From the NCBI GenBank assembly GCA_964507075.1, contig CAZDOL010000004.1:13730-39032 (forward strand): 25,303 bases of DNA. Reading direction: 5' to 3'. Positions 146 through 22,375 of the stretch are shown here, one piece after another; the stretch's first letter is position 1; every line of letters starts with the position of its first letter. The DNA is from an uncultured Gammaproteobacteria bacterium. GTDB lineage: Bacteria > Patescibacteriota > Patescibacteriia > UBA2591 > UBA6264. Under the pieces are notes generated by a model that worked only from the letters and a program-made list of their open reading frames with translations, did not search any database and was not told the DNA's origin. The translations under genes were made by a program, and so were the position numbers.

Positions 146-198
146 CCTGCCTGCCGGCAGGCAGGGAAATTAGATACTCGTTACACGAGTATCTAATT
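146..198. other. Two adjacent strong hairpins: a perfect 20-nt GC-rich palindrome (146-165) and a 13-bp stem with a 5-nt loop (168-198).
   Basis: 'cctgcctgccggcaggcagg' is self-complementary. 'aattagatactcg ttaca cgagtatctaatt' forms the second stem. No function could be assigned. Confidence 0.7.
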
Positions 199-3216: not shown

Positions 3217-4374
3217 TTAAAAAACGTTAATCAACAAACTTGCCATAGCGGCAATAGGAAAGGCAACCTTTAAGCCAACTAAACTTATCAACCCTATAAG
3301 ACAAAGTCCCATTATTGCTCTGCCGAAATTACTAGACATTTCGCGTAAAACAGTATATTCGTCAAGATAGGTTCCGCGATCAGTAAACTGCTCATAACTA
3401 AAAGCATCAAAAGGAGTGCGAAGAACAATATATCCCAAGCTATGAAAGGTTCCAATAACAAAAATTTGAAAGGCAGTAATAACAAACATTTTAGCCATCC
3501 AGCCAATAGCATAAATAAACGAACCAAAGCGCATCAATTTCTTTTTTGAAAACTTATCTGTATAACTACCCACCAATAATTGACAAATAATTGTCCCAAT
3601 AACAACCAAGGCAGTAACAGCTCCAACGGCTAAATACTGCCCTTTTAAAATTTGATAAATAAAAATTGGCCAAATAACCACCCCCACTAAACCCTGAGCT
3701 CCATCAGCAAGATATACTGTGCGTAAGCGTTTGTTGGCCTTTTTAAATAATTCCCGGAAAGATTGAAAATAAGAAAATTCAAATTTTACTTGGCTTTTAC
3801 TTAATTTTGTTAACGGAATAATAGCTATTGTTAAAATTACTATTGTGATAATAAAAAGTGTACTAAAACTACTTTGAGTCAACAGAAATCCAGCTAAAAG
3901 AGGAGAACCAATACCAACCAAATATCCTAATGCAGCTAAATAAGCCATTTGTCGTCCCCTGTACTTGCCACTTGTAAATTTAGCGAGGTCAACATGATAT
4001 GGCACCCAATAAAGAAGCCTGAACATAACTAGGTTAAAATTTGCTAAAATAGCAAAAAGTATTGGATTGCTATGCAGAAAATAAAGACAGATATAGAAAA
4101 TAATATTAAAACAGCGGGCAATAATCATTAACTTTTTTAATCCAGCTTTTTGCATTAACATTGCTCCAAAGGGAACCAATAAGCCATAAAGTAAATGCCC
4201 AACAGCATAAAAAACAATTACCCAGTAAACCGAATTGCCAAATTCTTTCAATAAAAATATTGGCAAAAACAAACCCAACATACCGCTTGCTAATGCCACA
4301 ATACACTGATGAGAGCAAAGCGCTTTAAAATCTTTAGATAATTTTACAGAACTAGTTAAGCGAAATATAGACAT
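3217..4374 (-). CDS. MFS-type transporter.
   Basis: The ORF is 385 aa with roughly 10-12 hydrophobic helices. Basic loop motifs ('YTDKFSKKKL', 'SGKYRGRQ') sit at MFS motif-A-like positions. No substrate can be inferred. Confidence 0.55.
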   Translation of the reverse strand: MSIFRLTSSVKLSKDFKALCSHQCIVALASGMLGLFLPIFLLKEFGNSVYWVIVFYAVGHLLYGLLVPFGAMLMQKAGLKKLMIIARCFNIIFYICLYFLHSNPILFAILANFNLVMFRLLYWVPYHVDLAKFTSGKYRGRQMAYLAALGYLVGIGSPLLAGFLLTQSSFSTLFIITIVILTIAIIPLTKLSKSQVKFEFSYFQSFRELFKKANKRLRTVYLADGAQGLVGVVIWPIFIYQILKGQYLAVGAVTALVVIGTIICQLLVGSYTDKFSKKKLMRFGSFIYAIGWMAKMFVITAFQIFVIGTFHSLGYIVLRTPFDAFSYEQFTDRGTYLDEYTVLREMSSNFGRAIMGLCLIGLISLVGLKVAFPIAAMASLLINVF

Positions 4375-4388
4375 AAATTACTATTTAA

Positions 4389-4567
4389 TCGGGGATGCCG
4401 GATTCGAACTGGCGACCTCAGCTCCCCGCCTAAATTTTCCAATCGGGGTAGGCGGAATTGAACCGCCGATCTCACCGTCCCGAACGGTGCGCGATACCAC
4501 TTCGCTATACCCCGAAAATTTGGGCGGGCGGACCGAGGCGTGCACGCTACCACTGCGCTAATCCCCG
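4389..4567 (-). tRNA. Interrupted tRNA-Pro-like gene. The 5' half (4567->~4532) and the 3' half (~4423->4389) are separated by about 105 nt that contain a complete tRNA-Pro(CGG).
   Basis: On the minus strand the 5' half reads CGGGGAT-TA-GCGC-AGTGGTA-GCGT-G-CACGC-CU-CGG. The 3' half reads GA-GCTG-AGGTC-GCCAG-TTCGAAT-CCGGC-ATCCCCG-A. The acceptor strands pair perfectly over 7 bp. The T stem has one A/C mismatch, and the anticodon-stem 3' strand is 1 nt short. Confidence 0.5.
4443..4514 (-). tRNA. tRNA-Pro (anticodon CGG); no CCA is encoded.
   Basis: The minus strand folds into a full canonical cloverleaf: CGGGGTA-TA-GCGA-AGTGGTA-TCGC-G-CACCG-TTCGGGA-CGGTG-AGATC-GGCGG-TTCAATT-CCGCC-TACCCCG-A. 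Confidence 0.9.
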
Positions 4568-4573
4568 AATTGA

Positions 4574-4650
4574 ATAAGAACCTTTCCTCGCTTTGCTCGT
4601 CAAGAACCTTGAAATTAATATTATTGTATAAAAATTATTGTGTTTTAATT
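4574..4650 (-). repeat. Single copy of the intergenic repeat family (A type), lying between tRNA-Val and the tRNA-Pro locus.
   Basis: 'aataAGAACCT ttcctcgctttgctcgtca AGAACCTTGaaattaatattattgtataaaa...' matches the reverse complement of units 14830-14988 in its flanks. The core differs. Confidence 0.8.
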
Positions 4651-4660
4651 ATAAAAAAAA

Positions 4661-4732
4661 TGGGCTCGAATGGGTTCGAACCATCGACCTTCCGCATGTG
4701 AAGCGGACGCGCTACCACTGCGCCACGAGCCC
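4661..4732 (-). tRNA. tRNA-Val (anticodon CAC).
   Basis: The minus strand reads GGGCTCG-TG-GCGC-AGTGGTA-GCGC-G-TCCGC-TTCACAT-GCGGA-AGGTC-GATGG-TTCGAAC-CCATT-CGAGCCC-A. All stems pair, with one G-T wobble in the T stem. Confidence 0.9.
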
Positions 4733-4748
4733 CTCACTTGAAAATTAT

Positions 4749-5960
4749 TTAAAAGGCTGAAGAAAGTTGATACATAGGCAGTAAAATAGAAATGGCCATA
4801 CCAGCCACAACTATACCTAAAAAAATAATAATAATCGGTTCCAATAAAGTGACTAATTTGGATAAAAGACCCTCAACTTCGCGAGAATAAAAATTAGCAA
4901 TTTTTTCTAGGATTTCATCTAATTTTCCAGTCTGCTCTCCAATGCTCATTAAACGAGGCAACATAGCTGGAACCGAAGAATGATTTAAAAAGGCATTGCT
5001 CGCAGAATGCCCACCCTCCACATCAACAATAGACTGTAAAATAATGTTCTTGTAAATAACATTACCAACTACATCCGAAACTATTCTCAAAGCGCTAGTC
5101 AAAGGAATTCCACCCACCAATAATGTTGATAAACTACGAGCAAAGCGCACTAAATAAAATTTTTGAAAAAGCTGACCAAAAACAGGTAATTTTAAAATTA
5201 CCCTATCCAAAAAAAGTTTGCCTTGTTTGCTTTTAAATAAAATTCGCAGGATAATACCTAATATTAATAAAACTATAATTATCAACCAATAAAAATTTTT
5301 AGAAAAATTACTTACACTAATAAGAATTTTGGTGGGCAATGGTAATTCAACGCTCGATTGAATTAGGATGCCAGTTAATTGAGGAATAACAAAAACCATC
5401 ATTAAAACCATAACTCCAATAACAGTAGCGATAACAAAAATTGGATAAACCATAGCCCCTTTAATCTTGCTCATTAAATCAAAATTTTTCTCCTGTTCAT
5501 CTGCCAAATATTGTAAAACTTCATCAAGATTTCCGGCCGTTTCGCCAGCACGAACCATATTGATGAAGAAATCATCAAAAATTTTAGGATACTTAGCTAA
5601 TGCAGAAGAAAAACGAAGTCCTCCCTGAACATCTTTAGATATATTTTCTACAATTTTCCCAAGATAAACATTATCAGTCTGCTCTTTTAGAACATTTAAA
5701 GAATCCACTAATGGTAAGCCTGCCGCGACCATAACAGAAAGTTGGCGAGACAAAAAAACTAAATCTCGTAAGTTAGCTCGATTTACAAAAGGAATATTAA
5801 TTTGTCGACGCCAAAAGGGCACTTTACTGGAATCTTCTAGCGACAAAACAATCATCTTCTCGTCAGTTAGGAGCTTTAAGGCAGCATCCTGACTCATGGC
5901 CTCAATAGTCCCTTCTACTGTCTCGCCTGTTTGATTTTTTGCTCTATAAGAAAATAACAT
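4749..5960 (-). CDS. pilC: Type IV pilus platform protein PilC (GspF/T2SS-F family).
   Basis: The ORF is 403 aa with the duplicated T2SF architecture: two cytoplasmic helical domains ('FSRQLSVMVAAGLPL', 'FARSLSTLLVGGIPL') and 3 TM segments. It sits in the pilB/pilT cluster. Confidence 0.9.
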   Translation of the reverse strand: MLFSYRAKNQTGETVEGTIEAMSQDAALKLLTDEKMIVLSLEDSSKVPFWRRQINIPFVNRANLRDLVFLSRQLSVMVAAGLPLVDSLNVLKEQTDNVYLGKIVENISKDVQGGLRFSSALAKYPKIFDDFFINMVRAGETAGNLDEVLQYLADEQEKNFDLMSKIKGAMVYPIFVIATVIGVMVLMMVFVIPQLTGILIQSSVELPLPTKILISVSNFSKNFYWLIIIVLLILGIILRILFKSKQGKLFLDRVILKLPVFGQLFQKFYLVRFARSLSTLLVGGIPLTSALRIVSDVVGNVIYKNIILQSIVDVEGGHSASNAFLNHSSVPAMLPRLMSIGEQTGKLDEILEKIANFYSREVEGLLSKLVTLLEPIIIIFLGIVVAGMAISILLPMYQLSSAF

Positions 5961-9094: not shown

Positions 9095-9200
9095 CCTGCC
9101 CGCCAATCGCCTAACGGCTCAAGGCATCTGACAGGCGGGCCCGCTCTACATCACCACGCTAAGCGGGGCTTCACCTTTGATTCGGATGAAAGCGAGCCAG
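9095..9200 (-). ncRNA. GC-rich structured element of unknown class, either a cis-regulatory leader of pilB or a small RNA.
   Basis: About 105 nt are far more G+C-rich than the surroundings and fold into three consecutive stem-loops. These are gcccgcc(9098-9104)/ggcgggc(9134-9140) with an inner atgcct/aggc(g)at stem, cccgc/gcggg (9140-9167), and ggct..ttcatc/ggtgaa..gcc (9167-9198). No ORF is present. The strand is assumed from context. Confidence 0.4.
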
Positions 9201-13765: not shown

Positions 13766-14794
13766 TTAATCGCAAGAACCTTCACTGCCAACAGCTGTGC
13801 CGGCACCAAAACTGGGTACAGGAGTTTCAGTAGAAAGAGTTTCTAAACATTCTTCGGGCTGAACATTAAATGCTTGACAAACGAAAGCTTTATAATTTTC
13901 GGGAGTACGAGGACTAATATTAACGGTTTGACCATTAATAACTATAGTTGGTGATCCTCCAACATTATATAATTCATTAAGATCATTTTCTATATTAAAT
14001 TTAGGATATAGTCCTTGTAACCAAGTGCTCTTATCTTCATAGTCAGCAGTTATATTATATTCGTTATCTAATTCTGAAATACAAGAGTCTAACGCGCCTT
14101 GGTCAACATTTGCGTTCAATAAACATTTATCTGAATCACCATCATTAACAAAACAAGATAAATAATTTCTATATTTTTCTGAAGACTCAGATTGAATACA
14201 ATATTGTATCAAGTTCTCATCAATCTCTGGTTTGTCGTGCATAATATAATTAACAAAACGTACATTAATATTTGCTTTGTCTTTTAATAAATCATAAACT
14301 GGCAACATAGTTTTCTGCGCTTGAAGTCCAAATGGGCAATATGTCATTACAAACAAATCAACGTCTGGCTTGTCTGTTTTGACCATTTCTGTGGTTTGTG
14401 GTGGCATGTTACTTTGTGCTTCTGCAGCTTCCAGTGCCTCAGCCATTTTAATGACATCTGGAAATAAATATTTTCCATCTTTAGAAACAAAAGAATCATA
14501 AGCTTTGTCTGCAATCTTTATCTGAAATTTAGTAACCTCAATATTTTCTTTAAAATCTACGCCCTCTAATGTTGCAGCAGAACCTGGAGGTAATAATTCG
14601 TCATTAATAAAGGTCATAGCATTGTCAATAATTTCTTGGCTAGCCCCCTCTTTTACTAATAATCCTTTAATTCCAAATCCATTGGTAAAAATTGAAACAA
14701 CTAATAAAGCGAGTAATACAATCCAACCAATTTTAGAACAACTTGGACATGTACATTTTTTTACTTTTTTAACTTTATTCAATGTGTCTTCCAT
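13766..14794 (-). CDS. Membrane-anchored DsbA/BdbD-like thioredoxin-fold protein with a single-Cys CPFG site.
   Basis: The ORF is 342 aa with an N-terminal 'CTCPSC' and then a TM helix. The thioredoxin-fold region has 'VMTYCPFGLQ' in place of CPxC, and a cis-Pro motif 'VGGSPTIVINGQ'. Confidence 0.6.
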   Translation of the reverse strand: MEDTLNKVKKVKKCTCPSCSKIGWIVLLALLVVSIFTNGFGIKGLLVKEGASQEIIDNAMTFINDELLPPGSAATLEGVDFKENIEVTKFQIKIADKAYDSFVSKDGKYLFPDVIKMAEALEAAEAQSNMPPQTTEMVKTDKPDVDLFVMTYCPFGLQAQKTMLPVYDLLKDKANINVRFVNYIMHDKPEIDENLIQYCIQSESSEKYRNYLSCFVNDGDSDKCLLNANVDQGALDSCISELDNEYNITADYEDKSTWLQGLYPKFNIENDLNELYNVGGSPTIVINGQTVNISPRTPENYKAFVCQAFNVQPEECLETLSTETPVPSFGAGTAVGSEGSCD

Positions 14795-14829
14795 AAAAAT
14801 AATAAATTAATTAATTAAAATTTAAAATT

Positions 14830-15092
14830 AAAATACCTTAATCTTTGTACAATAATATTTAATTTCAAGGTTCTGCGAACTGCGAACGCAGTGAGCAGGT
14901 TCTTATAATTAAAACACCTTAACTTTTGTACAATAATATTTAATTTCAAGGTTCTGCGAACTGCGAACGCAGTGAACAGGTTCTTATTATGAGCAAAGCG
15001 AATAACAAGGTTCTGTGAACAGAGTGAACAGGTTCTTATTATGAGCAAAGCGAATAACAAGGTTCTGTGAACAGAGTGAACAGGTTCTTATA
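14830..15092 (+). repeat. Tandem array of the intergenic repeat family, with two A units (14830-14910, 14911-14988) and two B units (14989-15040, 15041-15092).
   Basis: All four units end in 'CAAGGTTCT-[core]-AGGTTCTTAT'. The cores are 'gcgaactgcgaacgcagtga(g/a)c' in the A units and 'gtgaacagagtgaac' in the B units. The B-unit leader 'atgagcaaagcgaataa' matches the reverse complement of the repeats at 1-112. Confidence 0.9.
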
Positions 15093-19333: not shown

Positions 19334-19365
19334 AAAAAGTTTGGTGGCTCGGCCACCAAACTTTT
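19334..19365 (-). terminator. Terminator of the HD-domain gene. It is the same hairpin as 267-299 in inverted orientation.
   Basis: 'aaaaagtttggtgg ctcg gccaccaaactttt' begins 1 nt past the stop at 19367. It is the exact reverse complement of 'aaaagtttggtggccgagccaccaaactttt' at 267-299. Confidence 0.75.
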
Positions 19366-21919: not shown

Positions 21920-22192
21920 CTAAACATAAGTAGTTTTTAGTTTTATTAAAGTATCCCTCAATATTAGCTTTAGGGTCTTTTTGCCTTTGGTAGTTTTGAA
22001 ATATCTTTCCCTTCTCTTGGCGTCTTTTTCTGAAATAAAAGCTTCGTAATAGATTAATTTCAATGGTCTTCTATGGCTGGTACTTTTTGTTCCTCCTGTA
22101 TTATGATTATCTAATCTTTCTTTTAAGTTGCTGCTATATCCAATATAAAATTTATGATCTTTTAGGCTAAGAAGAATATAAGCATAATACAT
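21920..22192 (-). CDS. Small GIY-YIG nuclease-superfamily protein (UPF0213-like).
   Basis: The ORF is 90 aa. 'YYAYILLS..HKFYIGYSSNLKERLDNHN' gives the GIY...YIG motifs with the conserved Arg, and 'YYEAF...A..RE..FK' gives the catalytic Glu region. Confidence 0.85.
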   Translation of the reverse strand: MYYAYILLSLKDHKFYIGYSSNLKERLDNHNTGGTKSTSHRRPLKLIYYEAFISEKDAKRRERYFKTTKGKKTLKLILRDTLIKLKTTYV

Positions 22193-22261
22193 ATTGGTAT
22201 TATTTTAAAGCGGCCATAAACCACGTGGGGTTTACGGCCCTGAACCCTATGTGGTTCAGGG

Positions 22262-22332
22262 CTCGGGGGCAGGGATTCGAACCCCGATTCCCAGGACCAA
22301 AACCTGGTGGCCTACCATTAGCCGACCCCCGA
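22262..22332 (-). tRNA. tRNA-Gln (anticodon UUG).
   Basis: The minus strand reads TCGGGGG-TC-GGC-TAATGGTAG-GCC-A-CCAGG-TTTTGGT-CCTGG-GAAT-CGGGG-TTCGAAT-CCCTG-CCCCCGA-G. The cloverleaf is complete, with a 3-bp D stem. Confidence 0.9.
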
Positions 22333-22375
22333 ACGTATAAAATCATCCTAACATATATTATTATAATTATCAAGA

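Follow-up and report, generated by a model that had tools for sequence, protein, structure and literature searches.

Genomic islands and prophages that encode an integrase are kilobases long and carry a partial tRNA copy identical to their target and, as Williams reportedly described in 2002, they enter tRNA genes at sublocations in the anticodon loop or the T loop and regenerate the gene. Here we describe a 179-bp feature at positions 4389-4567 of a 25,303-nt stretch of contig CAZDOL010000004.1 (assembly GCA_964507075.1; the whole stretch analysed is referred to as the window), in which a complete tRNA-Pro(CGG) gene lies inside the anticodon loop of a second, broken tRNA-Pro(CGG) gene. The feature resembles integrase-encoding elements in its tRNA target, in its position within the anticodon loop (in the window and in the locus L026 of a relative, with a T-loop junction in another, L024), in the apparent preservation of tRNA function after insertion, and in the tRNA fragments left behind. 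However, the insertion measures 108 bp and holds no open reading frame (ORF), no integrase is found within 25 kb, and its cargo is a whole tRNA of another allelic lineage, identical to the target at 53-55 of 72 nt (about 73-76%). Group I introns, which also occupy anticodon loops of bacterial tRNA genes, home into intron-less alleles, giving one insertion site in different alleles; unlike them, the 108-nt insertion, short for a class whose members usually reach at least 200 nt, consists mostly of tRNA (72 nt), shows no Intron_gpI match and no ribozyme core (P3-P8), and has no homing endonuclease in or beside it. In phage T4, SegB is said to provide a homing-endonuclease-assisted inheritance of a tRNA gene region between co-infecting phages, for which an adjacent endonuclease gene is required; the likeness lies in a block of tRNA genes spreading to the detriment of a relative's homologous region, but no endonuclease gene adjoins the nested feature.

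Small hairpin repeats, including miniature inverted-repeat transposable elements (MITEs), repetitive extragenic palindromic sequences (REP/REPIN), Rickettsia palindromic elements and yeast mitochondrial GC clusters, constitute another term of comparison, as they share a length of ~20-110 nt, a non-coding and GC-rich sequence in an AT-rich genome, the formation of hairpins, a dispersed intergenic distribution and the capacity to land inside genes (PMC4478555). In contrast to them, a complete tRNA gene occupies here the apex of the hairpin, inside the anticodon loop of the same isoacceptor, and no cognate transposase or RAYT gene was found in the window. Within the candidate phyla radiation (CPR), a survey of rRNA insertions took short insertions at two 23S sites, distinct from introns, to be probable intervening sequences (IVSs) cleaved by RNase III, and such IVSs elsewhere leave the fragmented rRNA unligated (PMC11270868). 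The case presented here concerns the same bacterial radiation and also an insertion inside a structural RNA gene; however, that survey covers rRNA genes only, the word 'tRNA' being absent from its text (PMC11270868), and fragmented rRNA can still function, whereas a tRNA cut in the anticodon loop should not. Searches of the full-text literature turned up no bacterial case of one tRNA gene nested within another, nor of a hairpin repeat that carries a tRNA.

As read from its own sequence and those of its relatives, the 179-bp feature is the wreck of a resident tRNA-Pro(CGG) gene (allele type A), split by an insertion that carries a complete gene of another allele (type C). There is good support for the view that a mini-insertion killed the tRNA-Pro gene while bringing in its replacement, and that the outer copy is now in decay; for the explanation as a whole, which comprises an insertion-killed resident tRNA-Pro, a working inner gene and an origin from a hairpin cassette, we estimate a probability of roughly 70%. 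On the minus strand the feature is arranged as the outer 5' half, an 18-nt arm, the 72-nt tRNA-Pro(CGG), a second 18-nt arm and the outer 3' half (Table 1). The outer 5' half (nt 1-36) comprises the acceptor strand, the D arm, the 5' strand of the anticodon stem, CU and the anticodon CGG, and the 108-nt insertion is placed between nt 36 and 37 (G36/G37). An earlier note, made from the sequence of the window alone, had described this layout, and it was largely borne out: a complete canonical tRNA-Pro(CGG) is present at 4443-4514; both genes carry the CGG anticodon and represent the same isoacceptor; the outer halves derive from a tRNA (34/35 aligned columns of the 5' half and 34/37 of the 3' half agree with intact orthologues); and the imperfect 14-nt inverted repeat, 4425-4438 / 4515-4528, is complementary at 13 of its 14 positions, with a single mismatch. 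The insertion does fall in the anticodon region, as had been stated, its exact site being 36/37 and not the canonical intron position 37/38. The inverted repeat has no copies in the window beyond these two, and the left one bears four additional nucleotides (TCCG) on its outer side; the estimated chance of such a symmetric reverse-complement match around a tRNA, with 43 of the 4^14 14-mers lying within one mismatch, is about 1e-6. Folded as DNA, the 108-nt insert forms a hairpin capped by a cloverleaf (z = -5.0), and a 186-nt RNA fold gave z = -3.7.

The orthologous loci of relatives, retrieved through homologues of the PilC protein encoded next to the feature, display the order pilB-pilT-pilC, tRNA-Val, tRNA-Pro, the major facilitator superfamily (MFS) transporter gene and queH without exception, and several of them retain the outer gene in its former state. 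The Pro gene at this site is uninterrupted in L006-L008 (PilC 91% identical) and in L009-L011 (PilC 89%), with the type A sequence CGGGGATT[A/G]GCGCAGTGGTAGCG[T/C]GCACGCCTCGGGTGCGTGAGGTCGCCGGTTCGAATCCGGCATCCCCGA, which ARAGORN calls as Pro(CGG) and Rfam scores at 68.8 bits. For the comparison, the outer halves were aligned pairwise and half by half, MAFFT having aligned type A to the inner gene instead. The outer 5' half is identical to each intact type A (L006, L009) at 34/35 positions and has no private change, each of its differences being a polymorphism that one or the other relative has as well. Three changes of the outer 3' half occur in the window lineage alone: the anticodon loop has T38A; delG41 removes one base from the anticodon stem; and G52A breaks the 52-62 pair of the T stem. 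Stems are broken by two of these three changes (delG41 and G52A), and they correspond to the 1-nt-short anticodon stem and the A/C mismatch of the T stem that the earlier note had pointed out. Judged from these alignments, the outer gene is type A plus the 108-nt insertion, T38A, delG41 and G52A, and it can no longer make a standard anticodon arm.

Over 4300-4800, ARAGORN, including its intron (-i) and pseudogene (-ps) modes, which had been proposed as a check, called the inner Pro and the Val genes and no outer gene; over the same interval Rfam at E<=10 returned tRNA as the sole family and did not recognise the outer gene, whose cloverleaf needs G41 and G52, both lost. Furthermore, the strain of locus L024, whose MFS DNA is 97.7% identical to that of the window (96% at third codon positions) and which carries the same 3' flank (TTAAATAGTAATTT), retains no more of type A than its final 18 nt (CGAATCCGGCATCCCCGA), preceded by a complete tRNA-Pro(CGG) of a further allele (type D) and a ~105-nt GC-rich spacer. 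Since all but 18 nt of it are lost in this near-identical strain, that strain can do without the outer gene. A total of three private changes over 71 nt is about what neutral drift would allow, taking as yardstick the third positions of pilC, which differ by ~30% between the window and L006, and is consistent with decay, although it does not prove it. Two of the readings previously offered are therefore upheld together: that of a decaying pseudogene, by the three private changes of the 3' half, two of them damaging stems, next to intact relatives; and that of an insertion bounded by inverted repeats that brought its own replacement, by the intact type A relatives and by the correspondence of the inner gene to a stand-alone type C gene.

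The inner gene scores 66.7 bits with Rfam RF00005 at 4443-4514 (gathering score 29) and is called by ARAGORN as Pro(CGG) at 4442-4515; its tRNA-Pro identity elements, as read from the sequence, are C1-G72, A73, G35, G36 and G37, so that score and identity elements both place it among the tRNAs, and CCA is not encoded. It is identical at 72/72 positions to the lone, uninterrupted tRNA-Pro of the same locus in L018 and L021 (PilC 80%; metagenome-assembled genome contig JAIPGN010000003) and in L022 (JGI Ga0208904_1007732), where the flanks of type C are unrelated to the arms of the window. This gene is presumably the one that works. The 3' part of type C was also sought in genome contigs and in metagenome contigs, and one locus was returned from each, in both cases an uninterrupted gene with other flanks; these collections are incomplete for this lineage, the window's own contig not being among the returned loci. 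Two high-GC, jumbo-phage-like contigs from IMG/VR (L019 and L020, 249 and 191 kb) carry tRNA-Pro(CGG) genes and were considered as a source of type C. They were rejected, since the match is confined to a 35-nt core from the D arm to the anticodon arm, identical to type C and common to tRNA-Pro genes, and the acceptor and T arms differ. By eye, other tRNA-like sequence lies close to the tRNA-Pro of L020 on both sides. A BLAST search of the 179 nt against phages gave tRNA-Pro matches at 76-78% only.

In L012-L017 and L025 the site holds type B, and in L024 and L026/L027 type D, the alleles A-D being mutually ~70-76% identical. Set against PilC identity, B occurs at 92, 86, 85 and 82%, A at 91 and 89%, and C at 80%; since the distribution of alleles does not track the relatedness of PilC, the tRNA-Pro(CGG) gene at this locus has been replaced repeatedly. 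Type D (L024 6-79; L026 ~1531-1604) has a D loop without GG (AGTAGCC[T/C]A), a T loop TGCGAAT and G at position 55, and it scores 63.8 bits despite these odd loops, which may represent compensating changes in the tertiary contact between the D loop and the T loop.

Further rearrangements of the same kind were found in relatives, and their junctions involve small GC-rich hairpin repeats (here named Y, W, P, Z and X) that are present or absent between close relatives. The copy of Y in the window (Table 1) folds as a hairpin and is 91% identical to the Y that lies inside the tRNA-Pro anticodon loop in L026; the intergenic region that holds it measures 133 nt, and its counterpart in L021 ~20 nt. 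In L026/L027 (GCA_021161245.1; PilC 88%), the locus, with a 400-nt intergenic region at 1263-1662, reads tRNA-Val, nt 1-17 of an A-like Pro gene, the 74-nt two-hairpin element X, nt ~20-36 of a C-like Pro gene ending in CGG, Y (47 nt), the left half of Y, a complete type D gene, two 20-nt P palindromes and the MFS gene. Element X sits in the D loop and the outer 3' half is gone. Y begins there at position 36/37, as the window insertion does, in a different outer allele and with a different inserted sequence. When the 5' flank of type D in L026 (CCTGCCCGCCATAGCCTGAGC) is joined to its 3' flank in L024 (TTTAGGCGATGGCAGGCGGGG), the product aligns to Y end to end (score 52; 0/2000 shuffles as good), and type D appears, on this alignment, to sit where the apical loop of the Y hairpin would be. 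The arms of the window insertion share with Y the closing stem GCCCGCC/GGCGGG, the GCCCGCC 7-mer of the left arm being also found at the left end of Y, and 18/2000 shuffles were as good as the alignment of C arms to D arms. Extended by the four bases that open the outer 3' half, the right arm has the sequence TAGGCGGGGAGC, similar to the right ends of Y and of W, the repeat inserted in L009 and L022 (right end GCGTAGGCGGGAGC), as well as to the type D flank in L024. By the standards of MITEs, the insertion has terminal inverted repeats (14 nt, 13/14); the C module is single in our scans, and the repeats with matching termini (Y, W and P) are dispersed.

The neighbouring tRNA-Val(CAC) provides a parallel. 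In L022 (4647-4867, minus) and L023 (3727-3950), X (74-76 nt) splits the resident gene at a D-loop point equivalent to that of X in the L026/L027 Pro gene (...AGTG|X|(G)TAGCGC...), so that the 3' 54 nt alone are intact and score 28.3 bits in Rfam, just below threshold, and directly upstream there is a complete tRNA-Val(CAC) that is foreign. The pair is a second example of a broken gene accompanied by a replacement with the same anticodon. Altogether, this locus shows at least three instances of a broken resident tRNA gene that adjoins or encloses a complete gene of the same isoacceptor type, and the junctions bear members of a single repeat family. Z is a family of small GC hairpins (CCCCGCTTAGCGGGG; window 9141-9175, L006 3864-3892); in the spacer of L006 it forms an insertion with a CAAAG duplication, and a related piece adjoins Y in the window.

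Whether the two outer halves could nevertheless act, or be an error of assembly, was weighed against this evidence. Nothing in favour of an assembly or chimera artefact turned up, and such an origin, which the earlier note had listed, has a practically negligible probability: the 374-nt sequence between pilC and the MFS gene is base-identical in independent assemblies from four samples (JGI 3300028276, NCBI GCA_000405165.1 (ASNW01000012.1), Logan SRR29904085 and Logan SRR8437218), and the flanking PilC protein is present on 24 contigs. A functional nested gene would be one in which RNase P and RNase Z free the inner tRNA as an 'intron' and the outer halves, held by the arm helix, work split or after ligation, for instance by RtcB. 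The outer acceptor strands do pair perfectly, the arms can zip the halves together, and the 5' half is unchanged with respect to intact alleles; moreover, an insert in the anticodon loop with a GC-rich helix that could bring the halves together recalls archaeal and eukaryal tRNA introns and split or permuted tRNAs (PMC4090602, PMC3978253). In contrast to those systems, the host is a bacterium, there is no bulge-helix-bulge (BHB) motif, the site is 36/37 instead of 37/38, the stems are broken by mutation and a sister strain has suffered a deletion. Specifically, a BHB consists of two 3-nt bulges with 4 bp between them, and in the minimum-energy fold the 5' junction lies in a continuous helix, with 1-nt irregularities at the junctions. 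If the inner tRNA were cut out at its own ends, both 18-nt arms would stay behind within the anticodon loop, and with G41 missing no excision brings back an anticodon stem of 5 bp. Two stems of the 3' half are damaged, by delG41 and by G52A, which also sets the case apart from split tRNAs of the Nanoarchaeum type, where both halves are conserved and needed. Both the intron mode of ARAGORN and Rfam miss the outer gene. The bacterial nature of the host is evident in NAD-dependent LigA, the type IV pilus genes and QueH, and no EndA splicing endonuclease or RtcB-type ligase domain was found among the scanned ORFs of the window. The genome holds another intact copy of the same isoacceptor, a circumstance that the earlier note had named as one that would speak against its proposal: it is the inner gene itself, which already supplies the identical anticodon, so that no selection for the outer gene is expected. 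The 18-nt remnant in L024 likewise leaves the nested-gene reading disfavoured, as far as the sequences of these strains tell, and we regard it as highly improbable. A set of 700 in-silico excisions produced 481 ARAGORN 'tRNA' calls of many isotypes, which were lenient and non-canonical and were discarded as uninformative. In L009, L022, L023 and L024, Rfam at E<=1 found no family but tRNA, and matches to HPnc0260 and Plastid-ycf2 were rejected as antisense look-alikes of tRNA below threshold.

The rival that deserves more consideration concerns origin only, leaving the outer gene dead and the inner gene working all the same. According to it, type C arrived once, with its native flanks, from a related Patescibacterium as a foreign patch joined by illegitimate or microhomology recombination or by break capture; the inverted repeat would be incidental or a product of fold-back repair synthesis, and no family of cassettes would exist. 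In everything searched the exact module occurs at this locus only; the target's CGG(G) is repeated where the insertion ends on the right, as microhomology would have it; and the host has genes for a type IV pilus, of a kind that serves DNA uptake. The locus is also a mosaic: the Val-Pro spacer (4568-4660) is 97% identical to L006 3802-3915, whereas the flanking pilC and MFS genes are merely 82-86% identical (70 and 67% at third codon positions), which indicates recent recombination; judging from these identities, the tRNA region was probably exchanged more recently than the neighbouring genes. However, the flanks of type C in L018/L021 and L022 are unlike the arms of the window, the left junction falls on the same 36/37 phosphodiester as that of Y in a different tRNA-Pro allele (L026), the termini of the arms match dispersed hairpin repeats, and a symmetric 18 + 72 + 18 layout with zero loss of the target is unusual for illegitimate recombination. 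We consider this single-event origin unlikely, and an origin from a hairpin cassette is preferred. Several observations weigh against that preference in turn. A second C module, or the exact arms, was not found in the window, the 27 loci collected, the viral contigs or one genome and one metagenome scan, so that within these sequences the search for further copies, which the earlier note had proposed, gave none, and scans of viral contigs for the inverted-repeat module, Y and X gave 0 matches. No transposase, integrase or RAYT-like gene was found in the 25-kb window, and there is no clear target-site duplication but at most a CGG repeat overlapping the right arm, the right junction being ambiguous by up to four G. 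The C arms match Y in the terminal 7-mers only, their global alignment to Y being non-significant, and the D module was pieced together from two contigs (left arm from L026, right arm from L024). As to decay, the outer 5' half shows no private change, a difference of 0 vs 3 between halves that is not significant, and T38A and delG41 lie beside the junction and could date from the insertion instead of from later decay. Expression and processing of the inner gene, finally, are inferred from the sequence.

Under the preferred explanation, the promoter or promoters of the Val-Pro tRNA pair would transcribe the locus as one precursor, with the outer 5' half and left arm as its leader and the right arm and outer 3' half as its trailer. 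The inner tRNA would be freed by RNase P, by trimming of its 3' end and by the CCA-adding enzyme, whose action is invoked because no CCA is encoded, and it would supply all tRNA-Pro(CGG) function; the outer halves would go to waste, their evolution being roughly neutral. The arm helix would stack under the inner acceptor stem and may be a mere footprint of the insertion mechanism. The insertion itself would be a small hairpin-bounded cassette akin to the dispersed GC-rich repeats Y, W and P of these AT-rich genomes, whose members appear to land in or beside tRNA genes and to hold at least two cargo alleles between such arms (C here, D in relatives). The net effect would be the disruption and replacement of the resident isoacceptor gene in one step, and spread could proceed by transposition in trans, or by transformation and recombination with the tRNA halves as homology arms. 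The recurrence at this locus suggests, and does not prove, a pattern in which small hairpin cassettes break a tRNA gene and put another of the same isoacceptor in its place. A broader proposal, which we hold as tentative and rather doubtful at present, is a hitherto undescribed class of tiny, non-autonomous 'kill-and-replace' cassettes in Patescibacteria, each with a Y-family hairpin and a complete apical tRNA-Pro(CGG), homing to 36/37 of the resident tRNA-Pro(CGG) gene, which they would destroy and functionally replace, and displacing one another in succession (A->C, C-like->D, A->D) like a gene drive; 'empty' Y hairpins would then be relics or the mobile backbone.

Table 1. Positions of the nested tRNA-Pro feature, its parts and related elements in the window.
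Feature	Position	Strand	Remark
Outer tRNA-Pro(CGG) type A pseudogene, 5' half, CGGGGATTAGCGCAGTGGTAGCGTGCACGCCTCGG	4533-4567	minus	
Insertion left arm, TCCGCCCGCCCAAATTTT	4515-4532	minus	holds inverted-repeat copy 4515-4528
Inner complete tRNA-Pro(CGG), type C	4443-4514	minus	Rfam and ARAGORN
Insertion right arm, TTGGAAAATTTAGGCGGG	4425-4442	minus	holds inverted-repeat copy 4425-4438
Outer pseudogene 3' half (G37 to A73), GAGCTGAGGTCGCCAGTTCGAATCCGGCATCCCCGA	4389-4424	minus	
Spacer from tRNA-Val to outer gene, one unit of dispersed AT-rich repeat AAGGTTCT-N18-AAGGTTCTTAT	4568-4660	minus	
tRNA-Val(CAC), upstream partner of the Val-Pro tRNA pair	4661-4732	minus	ARAGORN and Rfam; kept in all orthologous loci
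pilC (T2SSF gene; name assigned in this analysis)	4749-5960	minus	
MFS transporter gene	3217-4374	minus	
Hairpin repeat Y, CCTGCCCGCCAATCGCCTAACGGCTCAAGGCATCTGACAGGCGGGCC, 'empty' copy, intergenic, upstream of pilB	9095-9141	plus	family of the arm termini
Perfect 20-nt GC palindrome P, CCTGCCTGCCGGCAGGCAGG	146-165		strand undirected; P also flanks type D in L026

The window has a G+C content of 33%, and its proteins include a type IV pilus set (T2SSE- and T2SSF-family ATPase and platform proteins, PilM and PilO), together with QueH, an NAD-dependent DNA ligase (LigA), GatC, Lgt and MurJ; an Amidase-family protein adjoining GatC is probably GatA. Close homologues of the T2SSF (PilC) protein carry the label Patescibacteria, and the host is therefore a CPR bacterium and not an archaeon. 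The nested feature and tRNA-Val(CAC) lie in the 374-nt gap between pilC and the MFS gene. The unit that forms the spacer between them is present in L006 and is not found in L008 or L009, and a promoter scan detected a weak promoter-like site inside it (4620-4648).

Units of the same type also form a tandem array at 14815-15091 (plus; 81 nt x2 and 52 nt x2.3), built as AAGGTTCT-[15-22 nt]-AGGTTCTTAT and preceded by an AT-rich leader; two such units lie at 14821-14955, and single ones at 4568-4660 (minus) and at about 100-145. An array of the tandem interspaced guide RNA (TIGR) type was considered for 14815-15091 and rejected: the TIGR layout used for comparison alternates 8-12-nt repeats with 9-nt spacers, whereas the units here measure 52 and 81 nt, those of 52 nt being 100% identical. 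The adjoining 342-aa ORF (13766-14794) had no match in Pfam, NCBIfam or PDB. A 56-nt tandem repeat (2.2 copies, 95% identical) spans 1-122 and adjoins palindrome P, and two identical 31-nt terminator-like hairpins (AAAAGTTTGGTGGC...GCCACCAAACTTTT) are placed 19 kb apart, at 269-299 and 19335-19365. Furthermore, a 90-aa ORF of the GIY-YIG/T5orf172 nuclease type (21920-22192, minus), which matches group I intron endonucleases weakly, is found directly downstream of tRNA-Gln(UUG) (22259-22333, minus), with two GC-rich hairpins between them and ~17 kb from the nested feature; a role of this ORF as an agent of tRNA-gene turnover is possible.

The locus constitutes a clean natural example of the replacement of a bacterial tRNA gene, with the old gene in mid-decay and its successor within its anticodon loop, and sister genomes preserve the stage 'before' it (intact type A) as well as further stages 'after' it. 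There is a warning for annotation too, as tRNA finders see the inner gene only and a naive reading would give a bacterial tRNA intron or split tRNA. The feature is, by analogy, one that would preserve function in the manner of a tRNA-targeting integrative element and that has the appearance of a hairpin repeat of the MITE or REP type. The reading of self-replacing tRNA cassettes built on a hairpin repeat deserves attention, even if we would still bet against it. Were it true, it would represent a selfish element of a new type, in which a hairpin repeat carries as its cargo the gene that it destroys; it would explain why tRNA-Pro(CGG) genes of 70-76% identity stand beside neighbouring proteins that are 80-92% identical, and it would offer a testable model for the rapid turnover of tRNA alleles in the reduced, AT-rich genomes of CPR bacteria.

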